DNA from: a phage | DNA length: 64,000 nt | Strand: one strand, 5' to 3' | Sequence record: PV730302.1 | In this document: piece after piece, positions 1-53,964 of the stretch | Numbering within the stretch: the stretch's first letter is position 1 | How the letters are laid out: each line of letters begins with the position of its first letter | Made by a program: the position numbers and the translations under genes | The notes under the pieces: model-generated | What the model saw: the letters and a program-made list of their open reading frames with translations, nothing else | The model's database searches: none | What the model was told of the DNA's origin: nothing

Positions 1-192
1 TGCACGTCCAGCATAAATCTTAGCCAAACCGATATCTTCAGTAAAGAACACACGATTTAGGTTTTTCTTACGACCGGTTTCAGACAAAACTCCTGTTTCC
101 TCAGGAGGACAAAGCATATTACCAATATTAGCAACACTACAACTTCCGTGATAATACACTTTATATTCTGCTTTACAGTCGATGGTTTTCAT
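1..192 (-). CDS. hypothetical protein, N-terminal part only (gene runs off the window start)
   Basis: ATG at 192-190 with GGAG SD 8 nt upstream; frame open to coordinate 1; N-terminus MKTIDCKAEYKVYYHGSCSV; not recognisable as T4 dmd or gene 61. Confidence 0.5.
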   Translation of the reverse strand, partial: MKTIDCKAEYKVYYHGSCSVANIGNMLCPPEETGVLSETGRKKNLNRVFFTEDIGLAKIYAGRA

Positions 193-209
193 TTTGTTCT
201 CCAAGTTGA

Positions 210-246
210 TAGGTCTATAGTATCACGCCTACAGGAGATGTAAACC
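210..246 (-). promoter_or_regulatory. early-promoter-like element (GTTTAC -35, 17-bp spacer, TACTAT -10, conserved CCTATCAAC leader)
   Basis: Minus-strand sense GTTTACATCTCCTGTAGGCGTGATACTATAGACCTATCAACTTGGAG immediately upstream of the ORF starting at 192. Confidence 0.55.
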
Positions 247-250
247 CTTA

Positions 251-277
251 AAACAAAAAAGGAGCCGAAGCTCCTTA
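251..277 (-). terminator. rho-independent terminator after gene 41
   Basis: Hairpin AAGGAGC-TTCG-GCTCCTT followed on the minus strand by a T-run (plus a-run 255-260); overlaps the gene 41 stop codon. Confidence 0.6.
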
Positions 278-1714
278 AAATTTGATAGATGCTGCTAAAT
301 CGTCCAAATCACTTCTATTAACACGTGTCTGTCGATTGACCTCGGCTTGACGATTCATCTCACCTGTAGCCTCACGAACAGTGTTCACTGGGCCTGGGTT
401 GGAATCATCTTCAACTTCGTACCAACGTTGATTTCCTTTCTTAACGCCAATCTTAAATTTGTTGTAGTAGCTCTTATCACCATAACGAGATTTAAGCTGC
501 TTAACCATCTGCATACCCATCTGAGCAAACTCTTCTGTCTCGACCACACCTAACATGAAGTCTGCAGTATGTGCAATACCAAAGGATTCAGCAATATCAG
601 CCATATCGATTTCGGCCGCAACGTTAGCACCACGAGTAGTCTGGGCTGCTGTCCACAACAATAATTTCTTCTCTACTGCAAGTCCACGTAGTTCTTCGGC
701 TACCATCTTAATCAATCCGTAACTGTTTTCAGAGAAAACTTTCGTACGAGAAGATGCACAGATGGCCAAGTAGTCGACGATAACGACCTGCGGGACAAAG
801 TTTTGTTTGAGCTTGTATTCGTTTAATAATGCACGGAAGGTATCGGCATTAGCACCACCGGTAGGATACTGTTTAATCTTTAATCGACCTAAAGTAGCAG
901 TTGAACGCCATTTATCCATCTTAGCTTTATATTCAGGCCAAGAGACGTGACCATCGTCAATATCGTCTAGTGATACATCCAGAAGGTTGGCATCGATACG
1001 CTTAGCACATACTTCCTCTGCCATCTCCATGGAGATATAAAGAACATCGTAACCAGATTGAAGGTAATCAGCAGCCAATGAACAAAGACCAAGAGACTTA
1101 CCTACGTTTGTTCCTGCCAACAATACGTTTTCAGTACCAAACTCAGCACCACCCTTGGTAATCTTATTCAGAATATTAAGACGGAATGGAACCTTACGTG
1201 CTTTATCGGAATAACTTTTGAATCGTTCTTCATAGTCATCCATCCAGTCATGACCTAATTCAGAATCGAAACAAATCGATAATGCATCACGCATGATATC
1301 CGGAATAGCACCAATACCTGGAAGTTTTCTATTTTGTTGCTCAACCGGAAGGTCGGCATTAGTTTGGATTTCAATGATTTTTGAAGTTGCATTATACATC
1401 GCTGCTTTCTGAACGTATTTCTCCGTCTCTTTAACCAACCATTCTTGGTCTTCAGGTCCGGCATTCAGCGAACTTAAAAGCTCTTTAGCGCCTTGATGTT
1501 CAACTTCTGAAAGCGTACTGTTATCTAATGCAATGCTCAGCGCGTTCTTAGAAGGCACTGCATTATATTCATTGACATGTTTTTTAATTTCTTTGAAAAG
1601 GGTCTTTGCCGGACCCTGGTCAAAATAAGAATCATTCATATAAGGCCAGACCTTAGTGAAATAATCACTATTGCCTAGCAGTTGAGCCAAAATAGTTTCT
1701 ACCACTTCCACCAC
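275..1714 (-). CDS. 41: replicative DNA helicase gp41 (DnaB family)
   Basis: 479 aa; N-terminus MVEVVETIL and Walker A GTNVGKS align with recalled T4 gp41 along the full length; GTG start codon at 1714-1712. Confidence 0.93.
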   Translation of the reverse strand: MVEVVETILAQLLGNSDYFTKVWPYMNDSYFDQGPAKTLFKEIKKHVNEYNAVPSKNALSIALDNSTLSEVEHQGAKELLSSLNAGPEDQEWLVKETEKYVQKAAMYNATSKIIEIQTNADLPVEQQNRKLPGIGAIPDIMRDALSICFDSELGHDWMDDYEERFKSYSDKARKVPFRLNILNKITKGGAEFGTENVLLAGTNVGKSLGLCSLAADYLQSGYDVLYISMEMAEEVCAKRIDANLLDVSLDDIDDGHVSWPEYKAKMDKWRSTATLGRLKIKQYPTGGANADTFRALLNEYKLKQNFVPQVVIVDYLAICASSRTKVFSENSYGLIKMVAEELRGLAVEKKLLLWTAAQTTRGANVAAEIDMADIAESFGIAHTADFMLGVVETEEFAQMGMQMVKQLKSRYGDKSYYNKFKIGVKKGNQRWYEVEDDSNPGPVNTVREATGEMNRQAEVNRQTRVNRSDLDDLAASIKF

Positions 1715-8556: not shown

Positions 8557-11268
8557 TTAAAAGTCGAACATGTCAAATAATGTTGCTTTTTTCTCGTAGT
8601 CGATTTTAGCAGACTCGGTAAAACCGGTCAGAGGTTTGATAAAGGTCTTTTGGAACAGTACGTTGTAGTCCATCCAACGGAGGACTTGGTCACGAATCTG
8701 AACCGGAAGTTCAATACCTGACGGCCATGCCATACAAGCTTCACCAAACGGGTTGCCTTCTTTAAGTGGCAGTACATATACCTTTTCACCATCAACGATA
8801 CGAGGCATAGTCAAATCACCTGCAGAAGCACGCATGTAAGCTAAGCAACCTTTGATGTGGTATGGACATTTAGAACCCGGGAATCCACCTTCATTATATT
8901 TCTCGATGTTGTTAGCACTGGATACTGCTGCAATGCTTACATAGTTTAGTTCGTTAAATTCCTTATTAAACTGTTTGAAATATTCTTGCAAAGAGGCCTC
9001 GCCTTCCTGAAGCATACGACGGATACATTCTTTCAGAGCTTTCTGAACTGCTTTAGGTGTACTTGATTTCTGGGTTTCGAGACCCATGATTTTCAAGTGC
9101 GGTTCGGCATAACGAGTACCTTCCATGTCCCAAACGTTCAGTGCATAACGTTTCTTGCCTGTCCAGAATCCACCAAGACCTTTAGAACCAAGTGGAGGAC
9201 CTGCGATAGCTTCTCGGTCCATGAACATCAAGTGTTGTTTGTTGTTCATGTACTCGCACATCTCACGGAAGCCTGCATCAATAGCTGGTTCCATACGTTC
9301 ACGTGCAAATTTATCTAAGAAGTCGACCCAATGGTTAGTATCACGGAATTTATCTTCGCCTACTTTATTGATGATTGCATCTGCCTTAACATAAATGGAG
9401 TCAGTATCACCATAGAGCACGAACTTCTGATTTTCAGTCTTACACACGCTATTCAGATATTCGTTAACCTTACGTTCAATCCATTGGAGGGCCATTTGAC
9501 CAAACAGTGTGATTGCAGTTGCGTTCCTGAGGTCGTAATAACGGAACCATACGTTACCAAGTGCACCATAAAGGGAGTTGATAAGCAACTTACGGTTAAT
9601 CTGAGCAGTCATACCTGCAACTTCGGTACGTTCAGCTCTGAACAACATTTCTCTTAAAGAAGGTGCTGACAGCGTTTTAATCTTGGCTTTGATTTCGTCA
9701 GAGAAGTCAAAACGATAATCGATATCCAGTGGACTATCAGCCGAGAGATTAGGATTTTCTAATGCTTCTTTAATTAACTCACCATTACGTTGAGCTGCAA
9801 GCATATAACCTTTATGTTCTTTACGTTGTAAGAACACCTTAGTGATTTCTGTAGGAATCACACCATCGCGGTCTTTATAGTACATCATGCCGTTAGGAGA
9901 GCAACTGTAGACGTCGCTAGGACGCGGAGCTGTTCCGGCAATATATTCATGTATCGGTGCGTTAGCGAATGTCCCTGCGATGGTCTCTGGGCTTATATTC
10001 ACTTGTCGAATGATACTCGGGTACAGAGATGTAAGGTCGAAACTCATTACGTATTTGTAAGCGTTAGGAATCGGTTCCTTAACGAAAGCGCCAGGATAAG
10101 GTTGGACCACGTGCGAACGAGCTTGTGGAATTACCTTGCCTTGCTCTTTAAGGCTATTAAAGATAATAGCGTCCCAAGTCTTAATTGGACTAAACACCGA
10201 CTGAATCTGCATCTTAGCATAATAACCCATGTCCAAACTCAGAAGAATGAACTGGCGTTTCATATCAATCTGCACTACACGATATACGTCGATAATGTTA
10301 TAGGAAATATATCGTTGGTGGTTCGTCTCACGTAACTTGGAGATTGGACCATCGTATTTCAACTTACCTACTTTCAATTCATATTCAGAAACATAATCCA
10401 GAGAATAAGAAGGCTGGTTGGTGAAGCTGAATTTTTTATAGAGGTCGATATAATCCAGAACAGAGATGCCGAACAAAGTAATGATTTCACGAGCACCGTA
10501 CATGTTCTCGATAACTTTAACACGAGTTTTACGATGTGGGCTTAATCGCTTAGCAGTGTTCTCACCGAACAGATTTTTCAGACGGTTATAAACGTACGGC
10601 ACGTCAAATGATTCAACGTTCCATCCAGTCAAAATCACAGGAGTTTTCTGTTGCCAGAAATTCAAGTACTCAAGCATCATTTCTTCTTCAGAATTAAATG
10701 GAAGATAAACGATTTTGTCAATGATTTCCTGTGGAACTTCGTCACCACCTTCGTCTTGGAGTTTCTCAGCGATTTTAATCGACCACTCTTCAACAGTACC
10801 ATAAGGCGAAACTAAAAGGTCGAATACATAGAATTTATCGTCAATCGAGTCGTAGTGGGTAATGGCATCGATAGGATGTTTAGCCTGAGCTGGTTCAGGG
10901 AATCCATCAGGAGATGTTACCTCGATGTCGAAGTTAGCAATACGAATCTTAGAAGAATCATATTTGATTTCTTTACGATAGGTATCAGACAAATAGGCTA
11001 ATTTATAGTCGTCCATACCCAGGGCTTCGAGGCCCATATCATCCATACGTTTCATCCATTGGGATGCATCACGCATAGAGTCGAATTCTTTCTTAACACA
11101 ACCCTTACCATAGATATCAATGTATTTTACGGCTTGCTCTGGATTAGCATGCATAAACATTGTAGGCTTGTATGGAACTTCACGACTACGTTCGTTACCA
11201 TTTTTATCGATGTAACGTTCGAGAATATTATCACCGATTTGTTCGACTGTCAAATAGAATTCTTGCAT
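8557..11268 (-). CDS. 43: DNA polymerase gp43 (family B)
   Basis: Near-colinear with recalled T4 and especially RB69 gp43; start taken at in-frame ATG 11268 (MQEFYLTVEQ, matching T4 MKEFYISIET) with AGGAAA SD, not the longer track ORF to 11328. Confidence 0.96.
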   Translation of the reverse strand: MQEFYLTVEQIGDNILERYIDKNGNERSREVPYKPTMFMHANPEQAVKYIDIYGKGCVKKEFDSMRDASQWMKRMDDMGLEALGMDDYKLAYLSDTYRKEIKYDSSKIRIANFDIEVTSPDGFPEPAQAKHPIDAITHYDSIDDKFYVFDLLVSPYGTVEEWSIKIAEKLQDEGGDEVPQEIIDKIVYLPFNSEEEMMLEYLNFWQQKTPVILTGWNVESFDVPYVYNRLKNLFGENTAKRLSPHRKTRVKVIENMYGAREIITLFGISVLDYIDLYKKFSFTNQPSYSLDYVSEYELKVGKLKYDGPISKLRETNHQRYISYNIIDVYRVVQIDMKRQFILLSLDMGYYAKMQIQSVFSPIKTWDAIIFNSLKEQGKVIPQARSHVVQPYPGAFVKEPIPNAYKYVMSFDLTSLYPSIIRQVNISPETIAGTFANAPIHEYIAGTAPRPSDVYSCSPNGMMYYKDRDGVIPTEITKVFLQRKEHKGYMLAAQRNGELIKEALENPNLSADSPLDIDYRFDFSDEIKAKIKTLSAPSLREMLFRAERTEVAGMTAQINRKLLINSLYGALGNVWFRYYDLRNATAITLFGQMALQWIERKVNEYLNSVCKTENQKFVLYGDTDSIYVKADAIINKVGEDKFRDTNHWVDFLDKFARERMEPAIDAGFREMCEYMNNKQHLMFMDREAIAGPPLGSKGLGGFWTGKKRYALNVWDMEGTRYAEPHLKIMGLETQKSSTPKAVQKALKECIRRMLQEGEASLQEYFKQFNKEFNELNYVSIAAVSSANNIEKYNEGGFPGSKCPYHIKGCLAYMRASAGDLTMPRIVDGEKVYVLPLKEGNPFGEACMAWPSGIELPVQIRDQVLRWMDYNVLFQKTFIKPLTGFTESAKIDYEKKATLFDMFDF

Positions 11269-20871: not shown

Positions 20872-21197
20872 TTCGCTGCCTTAACAATTTTCAGGTCAAC
20901 GAATTTTTTCTTACGTTGGTTTTTCATGCGGCGGATAGTTTTATCCGTAATTTCACCTGGGCACCAAGCTTTGGATTCAACACCAAAGGCAGCGACATCG
21001 AATTCATCAAGGATATATTGAACCAGGATTTCACGAATACCGTTCTTACCAATTTTCTGGTCTTTAGAGTGCATGATTGGCAGCAGTTCAGCAACCCATT
21101 GGTCAAGAATTTCAGGAGTCACAAAACCGGTATTCATCAGTTCGTTTACTTTATCGAAAGCGAAAGAGTTCAGTACGTTTTTAATAGCTTGTGACAT
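20868..21197 (-). CDS. hypothetical protein (109 aa)
   Basis: Start at ATG 21197 with GAGGAAA SD directly downstream of a promoter; track N-terminal extension rejected. Confidence 0.5.
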   Translation of the reverse strand: MSQAIKNVLNSFAFDKVNELMNTGFVTPEILDQWVAELLPIMHSKDQKIGKNGIREILVQYILDEFDVAAFGVESKAWCPGEITDKTIRRMKNQRKKKFVDLKIVKAAK

Positions 21198-21266
21198 AAT
21201 AATTTCCTCAGTTTTAAAGTTATAATCCGTGGGACCATTATACTCTGGTCCCAAGAGTTTGTAAAC
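21198..21266 (-). promoter_or_regulatory. early promoter, sigma70-like (TTTACA-17-TATAAT)
   Basis: Minus-strand GTTTACAAACTCTTGGGACCAGAGTATAATGG. Confidence 0.6.
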
Positions 21267-22156: not shown

Positions 22157-22335
22157 GATTTAATTTCCTTTGCTACTGAACAAAATAAAGAACGGTCGCA
22201 CACCATCAATGGGGCATCAGGGTGAGTCAAAGGTTGATACCATACATCGAGATTTGTTACCTTTGTTACTTGAACAGGGTAGCCATTTACTGAATAATAC
22301 TGGTCGACTTTAATTTCTTTATCTTGGATAGTCAT
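22153..22335 (-). CDS. hypothetical protein (60 aa)
   Basis: ORF directly downstream of an early promoter; SD GAGGAG. Confidence 0.45.
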   Translation of the reverse strand: MTIQDKEIKVDQYYSVNGYPVQVTKVTNLDVWYQPLTHPDAPLMVCDRSLFCSVAKEIKS

Positions 22336-22393
22336 AATGTTCTCCTCATGTGTTGATAGGATAGACTATAACACGTGAGGAGAGGAAGTAAAC
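22336..22393 (-). promoter_or_regulatory. early promoter with SD-complementary spacer arm
   Basis: GTTTAC-TTCCTCTCCTCACGTGT-TATAGT; spacer CTCCTCACGTGT is complementary to leader ACACATGAGGAG. Confidence 0.55.
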
Positions 22394-23326: not shown

Positions 23327-23796
23327 TTAAGCGATTTCCTCAGTTGTTTTTTGAATGAATCCACCATTTGTTTCTTAGTGGCAGATTCATTATAAGTCAT
23401 TCCGTGTGAAAGCATTTCAGCAATCATTTCTTCCTTACCCAACCTGCTGAACTCTTTGGTTTTATCAGGAACGAAATTAGGATGAATATTGTTTTCAGTA
23501 TAATCAGCTTTCAGATAGACCAGCAAATTCTCTAACCATTCGAGGTAGTCAACGTTTTGACCTTTAAGACCAGAACGGTTGAACTTATGCTTCATTTGTC
23601 CTTCTGCAGCATTGCACAGGTTACATAGTAAACCACGAACCTTACCGGCTTTTGGCCCGTTTAACTCGTGGTCGTGGTCAAGGTGGTTACTTTGAACATC
23701 AGGGTTTAATTCACGTTTACAAATCAAACACTTACCACATTGTGCATCATAAAGTTTTTGTTTTTCTTCTTTGTATAATTTGCCGGTCAACAACAT
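23323..23796 (-). CDS. 49: endonuclease VII (Holliday-junction resolvase) gp49
   Basis: 157 aa, about 85-90 percent identical to recalled T4 gp49 including the zinc-binding CxxC motifs and HLDHDHELNGPKAGKVRGLLCNLCN. Confidence 0.95.
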   Translation of the reverse strand: MLLTGKLYKEEKQKLYDAQCGKCLICKRELNPDVQSNHLDHDHELNGPKAGKVRGLLCNLCNAAEGQMKHKFNRSGLKGQNVDYLEWLENLLVYLKADYTENNIHPNFVPDKTKEFSRLGKEEMIAEMLSHGMTYNESATKKQMVDSFKKQLRKSLK

Positions 23797-23801
23797 AATA
23801 A

Positions 23802-23833
23802 ACCCTTACCATTATTAGATAAGGGTATTTATT
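23802..23833 (-). promoter_or_regulatory. gene 49 translational-control hairpin (SD sequestered) with late-promoter-like AATAAATA
   Basis: Minus-strand ACCCTTA-TCTAATAATGG-TAAGGGT, perfect 7-bp stem, 3' arm containing the SD AAGGG 5 nt from the ATG; AATAAATA (7/8 of TATAAATA) just upstream. Confidence 0.5.
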
Positions 23834-23925
23834 AATATCCTAATAGTTTAGCAGTGCAACTTAGCACTAACAACAATCCGAATAAAACAACTCCTACCCA
23901 AAATACCGTAATAAGAGCCTCCATA

Positions 23926-27202: not shown

Positions 27203-28096
27203 TTATTTTAGAGCTAATACTGCCGCGCGGAGCTTGTCACGCTGGAGTTCCATGTTCTTGATGCGGATCAATACGTCTTGAATACTCTTTTTCTCATCTT
27301 CGATCTGACCATTTAAACGGTGGATTGATTCCTGGAGGTGGTCCTCATGATACTTCTCGATAGGTTTCATCGTAGGGTTAGTAACCACCAAAGAATTCTC
27401 GGGTTTAATTTTCCAATGATACGGTTCAGAATTGAATGGACTAGGCACGGCTGTGGTTTTGAATTTGTCATAGGCTGCATACTGGCCTACACTGTCACAT
27501 GATACTGAAGAGATACGACGTTCCATTTGTGGTTCCTTTTGTTGGGGTTGATAAGGGGCATAAGACAAAAGATATTCGCGAGTTAGTTTAATATTAAAAT
27601 AAACTGCATCAGCCCGCTCAAAACAATCAGCGTATTCATCGGTCGTAACCTTATATGATTCTACAGCCTTAATACGAGTCATTGCTTCTCTGAATAAGGT
27701 TTCAAATGCACCACGAAGGGCCTTATTGCCTTTTGAGGTGGGACGGAAACGAACTTGAATACCGTCAGGCAGAATATTAATGACTAGGTTACGAGCCGTA
27801 AAATTAATATTCTTGATATTGACAGGAACCGTAGAAATACGTCCTGCGGTAGCCAAGAGGTCTTTGATATTAGCTCGCAGTGTTGCACCAAATAAATGAG
27901 CAGGGCAACGGCAATAATCGTTCAAAGAACTAATATAAGTCCCTTTACGACCTACACCATAAGTATAATTACCATTACAAATATGGCCGAAGTCGGCCAG
28001 CCGATCGATAGCGATACGACGAGTCGTGTCATGGTCATAGATGGAATATTCTTTACGCGTTTTAATGTTCATATCAGAGTCCAAATAATTTTTCAT
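27203..28096 (-). CDS. hypothetical protein (297 aa)
   Basis: ORF. Confidence 0.6.
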   Translation of the reverse strand: MKNYLDSDMNIKTRKEYSIYDHDTTRRIAIDRLADFGHICNGNYTYGVGRKGTYISSLNDYCRCPAHLFGATLRANIKDLLATAGRISTVPVNIKNINFTARNLVINILPDGIQVRFRPTSKGNKALRGAFETLFREAMTRIKAVESYKVTTDEYADCFERADAVYFNIKLTREYLLSYAPYQPQQKEPQMERRISSVSCDSVGQYAAYDKFKTTAVPSPFNSEPYHWKIKPENSLVVTNPTMKPIEKYHEDHLQESIHRLNGQIEDEKKSIQDVLIRIKNMELQRDKLRAAVLALK

Positions 28097-29197: not shown

Positions 29198-29722
29198 TTA
29201 TGCGAGAACCGTCTTTAAACGCTCTTCAAATTTCTGAAGCAGAGCTTGGCGTTCAGCTCGTTGTGATTTGTACTGCTCGATACGACCTGAAGTGAGGGCG
29301 TACTGTTCGTTTACTGATTCCCGCATAAATTCAGGAATCTCTTTACAAGCTTTGATTTCGTCAAACTTATCAATAACAGCTTGTTGTTCAGCAATCAGAT
29401 TATCGAAATAAGCGATATCAGATTTAACGTTTGCCAGGTCAGATTCGGTAGGCATTAAACGTTTGTTACGTTCAGCTTGATAAGCTTGATTGTTTTCACG
29501 ACTCCAGTGAAGAGTACGTTTTTTGTTAGTGTTTTTATAGAGCTCTACAATACCAACTGAATCGATGACTGCAATCCAGTTCCAACGGCTTTTGTAAATC
29601 TCTCCTCCAGATACGGTAATCTCATTACCACAAGCAACGTCGTTAAAGAACTTGCTTTGTTTTTCAGATTTGAAATTACCGTTGTTGAAATTAATCAGTG
29701 AAAAAATATCTTTAGCGTTCAT
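29198..29722 (-). CDS. hypothetical protein (174 aa)
   Basis: ATG 29722 downstream of an early promoter; SD GGAGG. Confidence 0.55.
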   Translation of the reverse strand: MNAKDIFSLINFNNGNFKSEKQSKFFNDVACGNEITVSGGEIYKSRWNWIAVIDSVGIVELYKNTNKKRTLHWSRENNQAYQAERNKRLMPTESDLANVKSDIAYFDNLIAEQQAVIDKFDEIKACKEIPEFMRESVNEQYALTSGRIEQYKSQRAERQALLQKFEERLKTVLA

Positions 29723-29777
29723 GATAACCTCCAGTAGTTGATAGGTCTATAGTATCATTTCTACTGGAGATGTAAAC
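29723..29777 (-). promoter_or_regulatory. early promoter with SD-complementary spacer arm
   Basis: GTTTAC-ATCTCCAGTAGAAATGA-TACTAT-AGACCTATCAACTACTGGAGG; CTCCAGTAG in the spacer pairs with CTACTGGAG in the leader. Confidence 0.6.
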
Positions 29778-31195: not shown

Positions 31196-31222
31196 CCAAA
31201 AAAGGAACCCGAAGGTTCCTAA
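31196..31222 (-). terminator. rho-independent terminator
   Basis: GGAACC-TTCG-GGTTCC followed by T6 on the minus strand. Confidence 0.55.
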
Positions 31223-34164: not shown

Positions 34165-34401
34165 TCACCAATATTTGTTAATGTTAGAAATCAATTCCTG
34201 GACCTGGGTAGTCTTCAGCTTACACCCACAACCCTTTAATGTATCTTTAAGGAGCCATGGCTCCTTGAGCTCGTCCTTTTCTAGACGAATTCTGTATCCT
34301 CGATAATCGGCGAAGATGCTTCGGTCGTCGAATATCTTAATCTCAAGGAGGCGGTTATTGATTTCATATTCTAATGAAACCGTAGTACTTGTAAGTTTCA
34401 T
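34165..34401 (-). CDS. hypothetical protein (78 aa)
   Basis: ATG 34401 directly downstream of an early promoter. Confidence 0.5.
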   Translation of the reverse strand: MKLTSTTVSLEYEINNRLLEIKIFDDRSIFADYRGYRIRLEKDELKEPWLLKDTLKGCGCKLKTTQVQELISNINKYW

Positions 34402-34458
34402 ACTGTTCTCCTCATTAGTTGATAAGTCTATAGTATCATGTTCCTAGAGGATGTAAAC
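34402..34458 (-). promoter_or_regulatory. early promoter (GTTTAC-17-TACTAT)
   Basis: Minus-strand GTTTACATCCTCTAGGAACATGATACTATAGACTTATCAACTAATGAGGAG. Confidence 0.55.
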
Positions 34459-34464
34459 ACCTAA

Positions 34465-34497
34465 ACGAAAAAAGGTCCCACCGAAGTGAGACCTTTG
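34465..34497 (-). terminator. rho-independent terminator
   Basis: GGTCTCAC-TTCG-GTGGGACC with T6 on the minus strand, right after the stop at 34499. Confidence 0.6.
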
Positions 34498-37861: not shown

Positions 37862-38320
37862 TTAAAGATAGATTACTTTCGTGCTGGTTTTACCTTCTAA
37901 ACGTTTAGAGTTAACAAATGCCATACGACATTTAAGGGAATATCCTTTATCAGGATGCTTACGGTCTACTGTCATACCCAACCATAAGGTTTTATCGGTA
38001 ATTTCTAGACGCAATGGGCGATACACTTTACCAGGGACAATTTCGGATTCTACATCAGGCAGAGGTTCCTGGATTAAAAATTCATGGATTTCTTTAACAT
38101 GGTTATGGAGTTGCTTGAATAAAGCAAAAACGTATTTTTCGTCGATTTCACGTTGGATAGCACGGTCCAACAAGTGATTAGAGTACTTAATAAAGAAGGC
38201 TGGGACTCCGCTCTTGATGGCGGCTTTTTTGATGGACGTATTCAGTTCACGGAATTCGGTTTCGAACTGACGACGTAATTTATTGCGGCGGATGAATACT
38301 TCTGAATTAATTTCTGACAT
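37862..38320 (-). CDS. regB: endoribonuclease RegB
   Basis: 152 aa; EVFIRRNKLRR and HLLDRAIQREIDE blocks match recalled T4 RegB; leader carries GGAG SD. Confidence 0.8.
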   Translation of the reverse strand: MSEINSEVFIRRNKLRRQFETEFRELNTSIKKAAIKSGVPAFFIKYSNHLLDRAIQREIDEKYVFALFKQLHNHVKEIHEFLIQEPLPDVESEIVPGKVYRPLRLEITDKTLWLGMTVDRKHPDKGYSLKCRMAFVNSKRLEGKTSTKVIYL

Positions 38321-38377
38321 TTTGTAATCTCCTGTAGTTGATAGGTCTATAGTACCACGTCTACAGGAGATGTAAAC
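38321..38377 (-). promoter_or_regulatory. early promoter with SD-complementary spacer arm (regB)
   Basis: GTTTAC-ATCTCCTGTAGACGTGG-TACTAT-AGACCTATCAACTACAGGAGATT; TCTCCTGTAG pairs with CTACAGGAGA. Confidence 0.6.
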
Positions 38378-40399: not shown

Positions 40400-40816
40400 T
40401 TAAGCGTAAATCGCCTTACCATAATGTTTGTACCAGGTAGGGCGTTGTGCAATTTTTTCGTCCAAACGGGCTTGTGAAATGGCGATAGAAGCTTCGTGAG
40501 GAACATAATCATCACGGAATTCCTGAGGAATGTCACTAATGTCCTGGACAGTAGTATCCTTGATATTAAAACCACGTTTTAAACATTCGGCTATAAGCTC
40601 AATTTGTCGCTTACGTAAAAATTCAAGCTTATCGTAAAAGAATGTAACATGGCCTGTGCCAAGGATAAAAGTAGGACTGATTTTGAAATCACGGACACGT
40701 TTACCATTAGCAACATGCTTACGAACTGCACCGAAAACACGTGGTAATTCACGATATTCAGCCATTAAGTGTTGGTCAGCCAATTCAGATACTAAGGTAA
40801 GGTTGATACGAGTCAT
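40400..40816 (-). CDS. denV: endonuclease V (pyrimidine-dimer DNA glycosylase) DenV
   Basis: 138 aa; only a handful of differences from recalled T4 endonuclease V. Confidence 0.95.
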
Positions 40817-40872
40817 TTTTAATCTCCTGTAGTTGATAGGTCTATAGTATCATGACTACAGGAGATGTAAAC
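40817..40872 (-). promoter_or_regulatory. early promoter with SD-complementary spacer arm (denV)
   Basis: GTTTAC-ATCTCCTGTAGTCATGA-TACTAT-AGACCTATCAACTACAGGAGATTAAAAATG; 11-nt perfect inverted repeat TCTCCTGTAGT / ACTACAGGAGA. Confidence 0.6.
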
Positions 40873-44451: not shown

Positions 44452-44664
44452 TTACTTTTTGTTGAAAAAGTACATTTTACCTTTAGGGGATAAGGATACA
44501 CGAAGTGCGTTACCAATACCAACTGAACATTTAACCAGGTCAGCAGATTTCAATTCACCAAATGCTTGACGAAGGTCACCGTCACGAGTGTTAACCATCA
44601 GGCATTTAGCACCAGCTGCACGAACTTCGTTTAACATGTTGATTGCTTGGTTAGAAAGTTTCAT
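44452..44664 (-). CDS. hypothetical protein (70 aa)
   Basis: Start at ATG 44664 with GGAG SD. Confidence 0.45.
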   Translation of the reverse strand: MKLSNQAINMLNEVRAAGAKCLMVNTRDGDLRQAFGELKSADLVKCSVGIGNALRVSLSPKGKMYFFNKK

Positions 44665-44729
44665 TTTATTCTCCATTTCACTCTGTTGTTTTGATAGGTC
44701 TATAGTATCACACCTATAGACCTTGTACA
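44665..44729 (-). promoter_or_regulatory. early-promoter-like element (GTGTAC -35 variant, TACTAT -10)
   Basis: Minus-strand GTGTACAAGGTCTATAGGTGTGATACTATAGACCTATCAA; inverted repeat AGGTCTATAG / CTATAGACCT spans the -10. Confidence 0.45.
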
Positions 44730-44742
44730 CTGTTTTGTGTAA

Positions 44743-49402: not shown

Positions 49403-49801
49403 TTATTTCATTTTTGCGAGGCAAATTTCATTGGCTTCCCATTGAGCTTGCTTAATAATAGCTTTGGATACAGGAGCCCTTTGGCCATAAGTTTTTGACG
49501 TTGAGAGAACAATACATTTGTTTGCTTCATTATGCCAGCCCCATGATTTTTCGCCATGGGTACCTTTAATTACAGCAGACACCTCAACAGAGCAACCACC
49601 ATCAGAAATCTTGGTTTCGACAATCCATTCATTTCTCTCAGCAGCTTCAAGTTCTAATCTAGTTTTTTCTTCATACATCGCGGCCCAATCAGTTTTTGCC
49701 AAGTTGAAAGCAAGGGCTTTCTCTAATTCTTTGGCATATTTTTGTTGTTCAGGTGTTAATGAATTATACAACTCTTGCATTTCTTTATCTTCGATATTCA
49801 T
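49403..49801 (-). CDS. hypothetical protein (132 aa)
   Basis: ORF downstream of an early promoter. Confidence 0.5.
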   Translation of the reverse strand: MNIEDKEMQELYNSLTPEQQKYAKELEKALAFNLAKTDWAAMYEEKTRLELEAAERNEWIVETKISDGGCSVEVSAVIKGTHGEKSWGWHNEANKCIVLSTSKTYGQRAPVSKAIIKQAQWEANEICLAKMK

Positions 49802-49856
49802 TATGTTCTCCTCAAATTATGGGCTCATAATATCTTAATCATGAGCCCGTGTAAAC
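49802..49856 (-). promoter_or_regulatory. early promoter (GTTTAC-18-TATTAT) with inverted repeat flanking the -10
   Basis: Minus-strand GTTTACACGGGCTCATGATTAAGATATTATGAGCCCATAA. Confidence 0.55.
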
Positions 49857-49859
49857 ATT

Positions 49860-50123
49860 TTATTTCATATTATTGAAATAATCTTCCGCATCAAAATCGT
49901 TATCATGGTAAACTTTGGTAGACGATTTGGCGTAGCCTTCAGCTGAGAACATATTAATCACAACTTTAATTGTATACCACTGTCCATCTTCATTACCCAT
50001 TACTGCATAGGTTTCATACACTGGGTGTTCAGGACCGATAACTTTAATATCGTTAACTGTAGCACCAAATTCTTCCGGAACACATTTCATAAAGAAATTA
50101 AACACTTCACCATAATTATCCAT
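49860..50123 (-). CDS. hypothetical protein (87 aa)
   Basis: Start at ATG 50123 with AAGGAGAG SD; track start is GTG. Confidence 0.45.
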   Translation of the reverse strand: MDNYGEVFNFFMKCVPEEFGATVNDIKVIGPEHPVYETYAVMGNEDGQWYTIKVVINMFSAEGYAKSSTKVYHDNDFDAEDYFNNMK

Positions 50124-50138
50124 TTTACTCTCCTTCAC

Positions 50139-50187
50139 ACTGTTGTTTTGATAGGTCTATAGTATCATGTTCTACGAAAGAGTAAAC
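50139..50187 (-). promoter_or_regulatory. early promoter (GTTTAC-17-TACTAT)
   Basis: Minus-strand GTTTACTCTTTCGTAGAACATGATACTATAGACCTATCAAAAC. Confidence 0.55.
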
Positions 50188-51758: not shown

Positions 51759-51833
51759 TGGTATCCCGCCCTGGGATCGAACCAGGACCGCAAACTTAGA
51801 AGGATCGTATGCTATCCATTACACCAGCGGGAC
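51759..51833 (-). tRNA. tRNA-Arg (anticodon TCT), CCA encoded
   Basis: Manual cloverleaf: acceptor GTCCCGC/GCGGGAT, D-arm GTGT-AATGGATA-GCAT, anticodon loop CTTCTAA, T-arm CCTGG-TTCGATC-CCAGG. Confidence 0.8.
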
Positions 51834-51838
51834 ATAGT

Positions 51839-51915
51839 TGGTGACCCGGACCAGATTTGAACTGGTAACCTTTCCCTTATGAGGGGACTGCTTCTAACCA
51901 TTGAGCTACAGGGCC
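51839..51915 (-). tRNA. tRNA with anticodon CAT (Ile2/Met type), CCA encoded
   Basis: Manual cloverleaf: acceptor GGCCCTG/CCGGGTC (one mismatch), anticodon loop CTCATAA, T-arm ACCAG-TTCAAAT-CTGGT; three stem mismatches in total. Confidence 0.65.
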
Positions 51916-52187: not shown

Positions 52188-52315
52188 AACACCTCAAATA
52201 AAATTAAGTAAAGTAAGTTTAATTAATAGACCTTGTCTATTATGAAAGGTTCTTTGAGGGAAGAACCTTTGGTAATAGAGGGTATTAATGATAGAGTAAT
52301 AATATCACATAATTC

Positions 52316-53002: not shown

Positions 53003-53187
53003 TATTCACCTTTAGAGATTTTATCCATAACGATAGCGATTAAGCCGATTAGAAATGCTACTACCAATGAGATAGAATTTTCTGTTGTTGTCAGTAGTCC
53101 ACAAATGAATCCTACAAACATCGAAAAACTAAAAGCCATTGAAGCAATTACTACAGCAACATTACGAATCAGTTCAGCGCGTTTCAT
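53002..53187 (-). CDS. small membrane protein (61 aa)
   Basis: Two hydrophobic helices; downstream of an early promoter. Confidence 0.45.
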   Translation of the reverse strand: MKRAELIRNVAVVIASMAFSFSMFVGFICGLLTTTENSISLVVAFLIGLIAIVMDKISKGE

Positions 53188-53245
53188 TTTATTCTCCTCA
53201 GTAGTTGATAGGGTAATAGTATCACTACCCTATCTAAAAGTAAAC
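53188..53245 (-). promoter_or_regulatory. early promoter (GTTTAC-18-TACTAT)
   Basis: Minus-strand GTTTACTTTTAGATAGGGTAGTGATACTATTACCCTATCAACTAC. Confidence 0.55.
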
Positions 53246-53625: not shown

Positions 53626-53898
53626 TCATTTTAAATAAATTGCATACTTTTTATAACCGGCCGTTTCGTGACGCAGCCCTTTTTCATTAGCAAAACGTTC
53701 AATATTGTTAATTTGATTCTGGTCGAGTTCTGAAGTATCAAATACAAAAAAGTTTCGCTTATTGCCTAAAGTTACGTGATTAGTCAAATCGATGTTATAG
53801 AGATGATTTATATCATCAATCATAGTCTTAACAGATTTGTTAATTTTTACTTCCTCATTAAGAATAGATTCAGCGATAAATTCTTGATAAGTTTTCAT
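53626..53898 (-). CDS. internal-protein-like capsid cargo (CTS-tagged, 90 aa)
   Basis: N-terminus MKTYQEFIAE identical to the T4 CTS. Confidence 0.6.
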   Translation of the reverse strand: MKTYQEFIAESILNEEVKINKSVKTMIDDINHLYNIDLTNHVTLGNKRNFFVFDTSELDQNQINNIERFANEKGLRHETAGYKKYAIYLK

Positions 53899-53964
53899 TT
53901 TGATTTCCGTGCGGTTAGTTTGTTTTGATAGGTCTATAGTATCATGCCTATAGACCTTGTAAAC
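53899..53964 (-). promoter_or_regulatory. early promoter (GTTTAC -35, TACTAT -10)
   Basis: Minus-strand GTTTACAAGGTCTATAGGCATGATACTATAGACCTATCAAAAC. Confidence 0.55.

Follow-up and report, generated by a model that had tools for sequence, protein, structure and literature searches.

The 64,000-nt stretch of PV730302.1 analysed here (the window) belongs to a T4-like phage. Approximately 4 kb surrounding the denV promoter are 98.3% identical to Escherichia phage QL01 (Tevenvirinae, Dhakavirus), in which the matching segment is annotated as encoding internal head proteins, endonuclease V and the RegB endoribonuclease; the genes at this locus lie on the minus strand. Promoters were located by regular-expression and consensus scans, the early type having the form GTTTAC-N16/17-TAnnnT. 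On the minus strand, the region upstream of denV reads, in order, GTTTACA, TCTCCTGTAGT, CATGA, TACTAT, AGACCTATCA, ACTACAGGAGA and TTAAAAATG, with ACTACAGGAGA followed by TTAAAA and the ATG. The promoter is of the T4 early type (TTTACA, a 16-nt spacer, TG ahead of the -10 element, and TACTAT), and its features are the following.

40866..40871, minus strand: denV -35 element TTTACA, preceded by G at 40872 (sequence reading, regular-expression and consensus scans)
40855..40865, minus strand: denV 5′ arm TCTCCTGTAGT, the anti-Shine-Dalgarno (anti-SD) segment in the promoter spacer (inverted repeat; paired in the minimum free energy fold)
40844..40849, minus strand: denV -10 element TACTAT, in the hairpin loop (regular-expression and consensus scans)
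about 40837, minus strand: predicted denV +1, taken as the seventh nucleotide past the -10 element
40823..40833, minus strand: denV 3′ arm ACTACAGGAGA with the SD sequence GGAG at 40827..40824 (sequence reading, minimum free energy fold)
40816..40814, minus strand: denV start codon ATG; the translation is endonuclease V

The original prediction, that the denV spacer is a perfect 11-nt inverse complement of the leader segment containing the SD, was borne out by the sequence and by an independent repeat search of the window, which also found this inverted repeat. Spacer positions 40865..40855 pair perfectly with leader positions 40833..40823 over 11 bp, or 12 bp when a flanking A-T pair is counted. 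When RNA extending from the -35 element to the start codon was folded and compared with dinucleotide shuffles, the denV hairpin was predicted at -20.7 kcal/mol, with a z-score of -5.16.

The same design had been proposed to recur at regB, at 29723-29777 and at 22336-22393, and it does so at each of these sites, with z-scores from -3.26 to -5.73. The regB arms (ATCTCCTGTAG/CTACAGGAGAT) form 11 bp in a fold of -18.3 kcal/mol (z = -3.26). Upstream of a homologue of nrdC.8 (promoter 29776), CTCCAGTAG and CTACTGGAG form nine Watson-Crick pairs, extended to 11 pairs in the predicted fold, and the hairpin reaches -18.3 kcal/mol (z = -3.47). The fourth site precedes a 60-aa ORF (promoter 22392), where TCTCCTCACGTGTT and AACACATGAGGAGA form 14 bp, including one C.A mismatch, in a hairpin of -21.6 kcal/mol (z = -5.73) that the repeat search likewise detected.

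38361..38371, minus strand: regB 5′ arm ATCTCCTGTAG; -35 at 38376..38371, -10 at 38354..38349
38327..38337, minus strand: regB 3′ arm CTACAGGAGAT with SD; ATG at 38320..38318; the QL01 gene is annotated as endoribonuclease
29761..29770, minus strand: nrdC.8-homologue 5′ arm TCTCCAGTAG; -35 at 29776..29771, -10 at 29754..29749
29728..29737, minus strand: nrdC.8-homologue 3′ arm CTACTGGAGG with SD; ATG at 29722..29720; QL01 notes NrdC.8
22370..22383, minus strand: 60-aa ORF 5′ arm TCTCCTCACGTGTT, extending into the -10 element TATAGT (22370..22365); -35 TTTACT at 22392..22387
22341..22354, minus strand: 60-aa ORF 3′ arm AACACATGAGGAGA with SD; ATG at 22335..22333

Relative to the predicted start sites, transcripts initiated locally lack the 5′ arm, as had been proposed, because this arm lies between the -35 and -10 elements or ends near +1. 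The corollary that the SD is free on local RNA and buried on read-through RNA agrees with the predicted folds, which are -1.4 to -2.2 kcal/mol for the former and -18 to -22 kcal/mol for the latter.

The proposed weaker form of the design, at 210-246 and 34402-34458, did not stand: complementarity at these sites is limited to 5 bp, and their folds match those of shuffled sequences (z = -0.57 and -0.42, respectively). Both weak sites are located directly downstream of strong terminators with UUCG loops.

34396..34458, minus strand: weak site of the same promoter family; 5-bp TCCTC/GAGGA match, z = -0.42
187..245, minus strand: weak site with a denV-type 5′ arm, TCTCCTGTAG, and a leader that offers GGAGA only; z = -0.57
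34471-34496, 31203-31220 and about 250-280, minus strand: intrinsic terminators with a UUCG tetraloop and T run, just upstream of promoters 34457, 31177 and 244, respectively

These terminator-preceded promoters (34457, 31177 and 244) have weak or absent SD masks, and over all loci masks occurred at 2 of 25 promoters with an upstream terminator versus 30 of 158 others, a difference in the expected direction that is not significant (p = 0.26). A consensus scan for intrinsic terminators (GC-rich stem, short loop and U tract) found none at the four strong sites and none between the ipIII-like gene and denV.

Site 187..245, with promoter 244, looks like half of a cassette. From the -35 element to the SD, the regB (38315-38377) and denV (40811-40872) sequences are near-identical, differing at three spacer bases and, beyond, at one base between SD and AUG; site 244 shares only the 5′ half of this cassette, and the T4 regB and denV promoters differ from one another. 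This likeness suggests cassette transfer or gene conversion of the kind proposed for promoter early stem-loop (PeSL) elements. Elsewhere in the window, the -35 region of promoter 50186 (50120-50187, minus strand), UUUACUCU, complements AGAGUAAA at the 3′ edge of the SD (-10 kcal/mol; SD-upstream pairing probability 0.8), possibly a weak mask that uses the -35 element. A strong hairpin at 52236-52279 has 19-nt arms (TCTATTATGAAAGGTTCTT and AAGAACCTTTGGTAATAGA) that are 89% complementary and a 6-nt loop. A search of the whole window against Rfam at the gathering score matched only two tRNAs, Arg(TCT) and Met(CAT) at 51759-51915 (minus strand), and assigned no family to the promoter hairpins.

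A lone perfect 11-nt inverted repeat is not rare in 64 kb of AT-rich DNA, so the significance of the masks rests on their position and recurrence. Another such repeat, AGAATATTAAT/ATTAATATTCT at 27771-27813, is AT-rich, flanks a promoter-like TTTACG-N17-TAATAT, seems to lie in or near coding sequence, and may be a product of chance. A perfect Watson-Crick helix of at least 8 bp spans the SD at 4 of the window's 24 early promoter/gene pairs; when the promoter bases outside the hexamers were shuffled, the mean number of such helices was 0.05, and none of 1000 shuffles reached four. The survey was extended to 183 unique promoter/gene pairs drawn from the window, part of T4 and 34 T4-like IMG/VR contigs found via denV, with masking defined as a duplex of the segment preceding the start site with the leader that covers the SD, at cut-offs of -14 and -16 kcal/mol. 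At -16 kcal/mol or better, 13.1% of the pairs had such a duplex, compared to 2.2% of chimeras and 0.8% of dinucleotide shuffles; at -14 kcal/mol the corresponding values were 17.5%, 4.8% and 3.1%. The general form of the original prediction, that early promoters as a rule are built in this way, is thus too broad: only about 13-18% are, mostly those of regB, denV, nrdC.8 and a few others. SD masking is real, and it is a minority, gene-specific design.

Two other measures were discarded in favor of Watson-Crick-only helices, duplex-energy thresholds and energy measures. The mean probability of pairing between the SD and the pre-start-site segment was 0.48 for cognate pairs and 0.47 for chimeras, and is uninformative: in short folds, a promoter rich in U and C will find a partner in any SD. 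The longest helix with G.U pairs allowed was also dropped, since in purine-rich leaders both A and G are partners for T, and shuffled controls reached the real scores.

Masks are associated with promoters. In the clustered set, 27 of 134 promoter-preceded starts (20%) had an SD-covering duplex that reached -16 kcal/mol, versus 12 of 441 promoter-less starts (2.7%; p = 2.9e-10). This is the predicted distribution, because a mask should be tolerable only where a local promoter supplies unmasked mRNA.

In orthologues from other T4-like phages, the arms have changed together. The denV arm pairs in the spacer-borne geometry include TCTCCTGTAG/CTACAGGAGA, TTCCTCCAAG/CTTGGAGGAA, TCTCCGTTTG/CAAACGGAGA, TTCTCCTGTAGATG/CATCTACAGGAGAA and TCTCCTGTG/CACAGGAGA, sequences that vary by lineage with complementarity kept, and regB orthologues contain at least nine distinct arm pairs. 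Alignment-free permutation, in which cognate arms were compared with arms swapped in from other orthologues, gave mean energies of -18.0 versus -12.0 kcal/mol for regB (n = 23, p = 0.0002) and -16.5 versus -10.8 kcal/mol for denV (n = 30, p = 0.0002). This test replaced column-wise covariation in a MAFFT alignment of regB upstream regions, in which pair counting was unusable because the arms stand in different registers. A duplex of -13 kcal/mol or better was found in 83% of the regB and 87% of the denV orthologues, and nrdC.8, for which the window homologue and T4 use different arms, represents a third covarying family. None of 13 internal-protein (ip) genes, which served as negative controls, has a mask. 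These comparative data support selection for masking of the ribosome-binding site. Part of the covariation may nevertheless reflect cassette replacement, given that whole cassettes are common to unrelated genes. G.U mismatches show no excess over A.C mismatches in the stems (7 versus 9), and so give no separate proof that selection acted on sense-strand RNA.

In other lineages, denV has a second geometry, in which the 5′ arm consists of the tail of the -10 element plus the 6-7 nt ahead of the predicted +1, and its partner is the SD and often the AUG (e.g. ATGATGTCTTCC/GGAGGACATCAT and ATGTCCTCCTA/TAGGAGGACAT). Second-geometry masks, in which the 5′ arm pairs with SD and AUG, were found at the following places.

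about 9945-10000 in contigs L005, L012, L013, L020, L027, L029-31, L037 and L040
T4 13130: modB

Overall, the distance from the end of the 5′ arm to the predicted +1 takes two forms: 12-23 nt on the upstream side, or no more than 2 nt, in which case the design depends on the exact start site. In jumbo phages of approximately 350 kb that carry denV (L028, L032, L034 and L038, at about 9930-10000), the upstream element is of another kind: a terminator hairpin, AAAGGGTTGACTTCGGTCAGCCCTTTTT, contains the -35 element (TTGAC) of the promoter that follows, and the SD takes no part in pairing.

The same scan applied to T4 bases 1-77,000 identified masks at regB, nrdC.8, denV, motB.2 and modB, with energies from -18.0 to -23.7 kcal/mol. 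These early masks are more stable than the experimentally validated T4 hairpins of e (-14.9 kcal/mol), 49 (-16.3 kcal/mol) and soc (-8.6 kcal/mol), of which the e hairpin lowers lysozyme synthesis 100-fold (PMC3014915). As a positive control, the scan recovered the known T4 gene 49 hairpin. The window also contains the known RBS-sequestering hairpin of gene 49 (endonuclease VII) at about 23796-23860 (minus strand), AAUAAAUACCCUUAUC...GGUAAGGGUUUAUU-AUG, at about -17 kcal/mol, as in T4.

In a second type of promoter hairpin, here called class B, the partner of the spacer is the -10/+1 region, and the SD stays unpaired. Examples are AGGTCTATAG...CTATAGACCT at 53963 and 44729 and GGGCTCAT...ATGAGCCC at 49855, with z-scores of about -5.

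53893-53964, minus strand: class B hairpin
44660-44730, minus strand: class B hairpin
49796-49856, minus strand: class B hairpin
53180-53245, minus strand: class B hairpin
21192-21266, minus strand: class B hairpin

A core hairpin of -12 kcal/mol or better occurs at 27% of the 183 promoters versus 2% of shuffles, and is commoner than the SD mask. SD masking does not account for the function of class B hairpins, and the existence of this larger SD-sparing class means that both classes could have a function in common. T4 ipII and ipIII carry the class B dyad, and class B fits both the promoter with overlapping dyad symmetry of Repoila 1994, as described in the text that cites it, and the PeSL cassettes of Arbiol 2010 and Comeau 2014.

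From the observed arm sequences, predicted stabilities, covariation, gene specificity and promoter association, we infer the start sites, the read-through RNA and the translational block that together make up promoter-gated translation, i.e. translational insulation of a gene against read-through, and we lean towards this as the best explanation of the masks. The anti-SD arm would occupy positions that the promoter does not need, either the spacer following the -35 element or the stretch from the -10 tail to +1. Initiation at the local promoter would yield an mRNA that begins downstream of the arm, leaving the SD free, whereas in RNA initiated upstream both arms would be present and their pairing, at -18 to -24 kcal/mol, would close off the SD and, in some phages, the AUG as well, which would keep the gene from being translated from read-through RNA. 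Such RNA is to be expected at denV, since no terminator was seen between it and the ipIII-like gene. RegB, DenV and, in T4, ModB would then likely be made only while their own early promoters fire, and not from heavy transcription of neighbours, among them the internal-protein genes. As a secondary effect, read-through RNA that is not translated might become subject to Rho-dependent polarity. The broader statement that an immediate-early set comprising RegB, DenV, the ModB ADP-ribosyltransferase, nrdC.8 and motB.2 is translated only from its own early promoters across T4-like phages is plausible, if somewhat doubtful.

Several other explanations bear on the same observations. Chance complementarity between pyrimidine-rich spacers and purine-rich SDs might be suspected from the equal SD pairing probabilities of chimeras and cognate pairs (0.47 vs 0.48) and from the two weak sites, which are at chance level, yet neither shuffles nor chimeras come near the four strong sites or the families of regB and denV. 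As a general account chance is hardly credible; it is refuted for the four strong sites and is the best reading for 187-245 and 34396-34458. Both hairpin classes might act as a general read-through insulator that attenuates or terminates transcription or stabilises mRNA 3′ ends, with the SD included merely via short leaders, which tend to bring a large hairpin near the gene start into reach of the SD. The SD-sparing class B is commoner than the masking class and equally non-random, and one RB49/phi1 PeSL stem-loop cut downstream lacZ expression as much as the rrnB T1 terminator (Arbiol et al., PMC2839356). We consider this explanation unlikely, because the 3′ arm is followed by A-rich UUAAAAAUG rather than a U tract, the genuine terminators of the window, with their GC stems, UUCG loops and T runs, do not resemble the masks, and regB and denV retain SD pairing despite full turnover of the arms and even a change of geometry, with ip genes at 0/13.

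Translational coupling, in which ribosomes finishing the upstream ORF open the hairpin and downstream translation is proportional to upstream translation instead of being silenced, draws on the position of the upstream stop codon, a median of 6 nt ahead of the -35 element. Terminating ribosomes may at this distance partly open the stem, and at roughly half of the masked promoters pairing begins no more than 11 nt past the stop codon, within their reach. A terminating ribosome covers approximately 12 nt past the stop codon. In the main design, the SD partner TCTCC is about 13-17 nt past the stop codon and so would lie just beyond it, and the 5′ arm of the second design lies farther off still, at about 30 nt; masks are moreover rare (2.7%) at intercistronic junctions that lack a promoter, the very places at which coupling would bring the greatest benefit. 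Coupling is for these reasons rather improbable. The masks could also be a DNA-level by-product of mobile promoter cassettes, i.e. recombination linkers of the PeSL type, without any role in RNA. Recombination, however, requires that copies be homologous to one another, not that a copy be complementary to itself. In every case one of the two arms is the SD, and the genes concerned form a specific set; the masks also follow promoters instead of intergenic DNA generally. These points make a cassette by-product quite improbable, even with near-identical cassettes at the unrelated regB, denV and site 244 (the T4 regB and denV promoters being different), a half-cassette at site 244, no excess of G.U pairs, and a PeSL literature that ties such elements to indels (PMC2839356, PMC4122927).

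The GGAG leaders had also been connected with RegB, which cleaves at this motif. GGAG is the SD at denV; the connection itself is weak and at most incidental, since few SDs are commoner in T4 than GGAG, folded RNA is protected from RegB, and the T4 denV GGAG is RegB-resistant in vivo owing to its 3′ context (PMC1702504). On read-through RNA, the mask would in addition keep the GGAG out of reach of RegB. In the window, the regB leader, GGAGAUUACAA (38320-38332, minus strand), has C at position 9 of the RegB/S1 consensus GGAGRAYARAA, a base never found at that position in RegB-cleaved sites (Durand 2006, PMC1702504), so RegB autoregulation may differ in this phage.

T4 is the reference system for phage gene regulation, and promoter-gated translation, if true, would have several consequences for it. 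Shut-off of early promoters would be an off-switch for RegB, DenV, ModB, nrdC.8 and motB.2 regardless of middle or late read-through, adding a regulatory layer for potentially harmful early enzymes. In a 2022 omics study, RegB, ModB and MotB appear as early proteins by proteomics, and a mismatch between transcript and protein timing in T4 was left unexplained; promoter-gated translation would explain part of this mismatch. It would give a post-transcriptional role to the stem-loops that overlap promoters in T-even phages, and hence a function to part of the dyad-symmetry and PeSL elements, which until now have been seen mainly as recombination linkers and terminators. It would also offer a compact design rule for insulating tandem transcription units.

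Placement of a promoter inside an RBS-sequestering hairpin has precedents. In the fold-back inhibition of IS10 and IS50, a sigma70 promoter lies between the arms, and read-through RNA hides the transposase RBS, which RNA from the transposase promoter itself does not. That system belongs to insertion sequences, is unrelated in sequence to the masks, and guards against fortuitous external promoters instead of tandem phage promoters. Among T4 genes, the logic which the original prediction attributed to e and 49 is confirmed by a 2010 review of post-transcriptional control, whose examples all have late promoters (e, soc, 49, I-TevI and a number of homing endonucleases), with long transcripts translationally silent and promoter-proximal ones active, and which reports little progress on cis-acting RNA structures (PMC3014915); regB, denV, nrdC.8, motB.2 and modB are absent from its list of sequestered genes. 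At e, 49, soc and I-TevI the SD and/or AUG forms part of a helix, and a nearby promoter starts transcription downstream of the 5′ strand of that helix. The masks are alike in both respects: at the strong sites of the window the SD is paired in a stable local helix of -18 to -22 kcal/mol, and the promoters are placed so that transcripts from the predicted +1 lack the 5′ strand, which lies between the -35 and -10 elements or ends at -2..+2. They differ in the embedded promoter, which at the late genes is of the gp55 type, TATAAATA, and delays expression to late times. The promoters at the masks are not of this late type and have the early form GTTTAC-N16/17-TAnnnT; they are sigma70-type promoters in which the spacer or discriminator holds the arm, and they would limit expression to the early period.

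Closer in location are the elements of approximately 70 bp described by Repoila 1994 at the T-even IP locus, an early promoter with overlapping dyad symmetry (cited in PMC2839356). They share genome region and promoter family with the masks; judged from the citing text and the T4 sequence, their spacer has the -10/+1 region as its partner, and the SD is not involved. PeSL elements consist of an intergenic strong early promoter plus a stem-loop and end in the SD and start codon of the next gene (Arbiol 2010, Comeau 2014). The masks also comprise an intergenic, strong sigma70-like early promoter followed by the SD and ATG of the next gene. PeSL elements are repeated across hyperplastic regions, with copies common to unrelated genes; in the window, near-identical cassettes occur at regB, denV and site 244, but T4 has different ones. 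PeSL stem-loops, however, are wholly upstream of the start site, in five positional subclasses (in PST/T4 just upstream of the promoter), a positional feature that the class B hairpins of the window do have, and they have been read as terminators and recombination linkers, with no SD-pairing arm in their descriptions. The masks do not show a stem-loop wholly before the start site or a terminator/attenuator, as their 3′ arm is in the transcribed leader with the SD and lacks a U tract. In the literature consulted, SD masking by an arm inside an early promoter was not found stated, and older T4 papers might remark on single genes. The composite of promoter and stem-loop is thus already published, as is the promoter-inside-hairpin logic for late promoters; our analysis extends RBS masking by a promoter within a hairpin from the late genes of T4 to early genes such as regB and denV.
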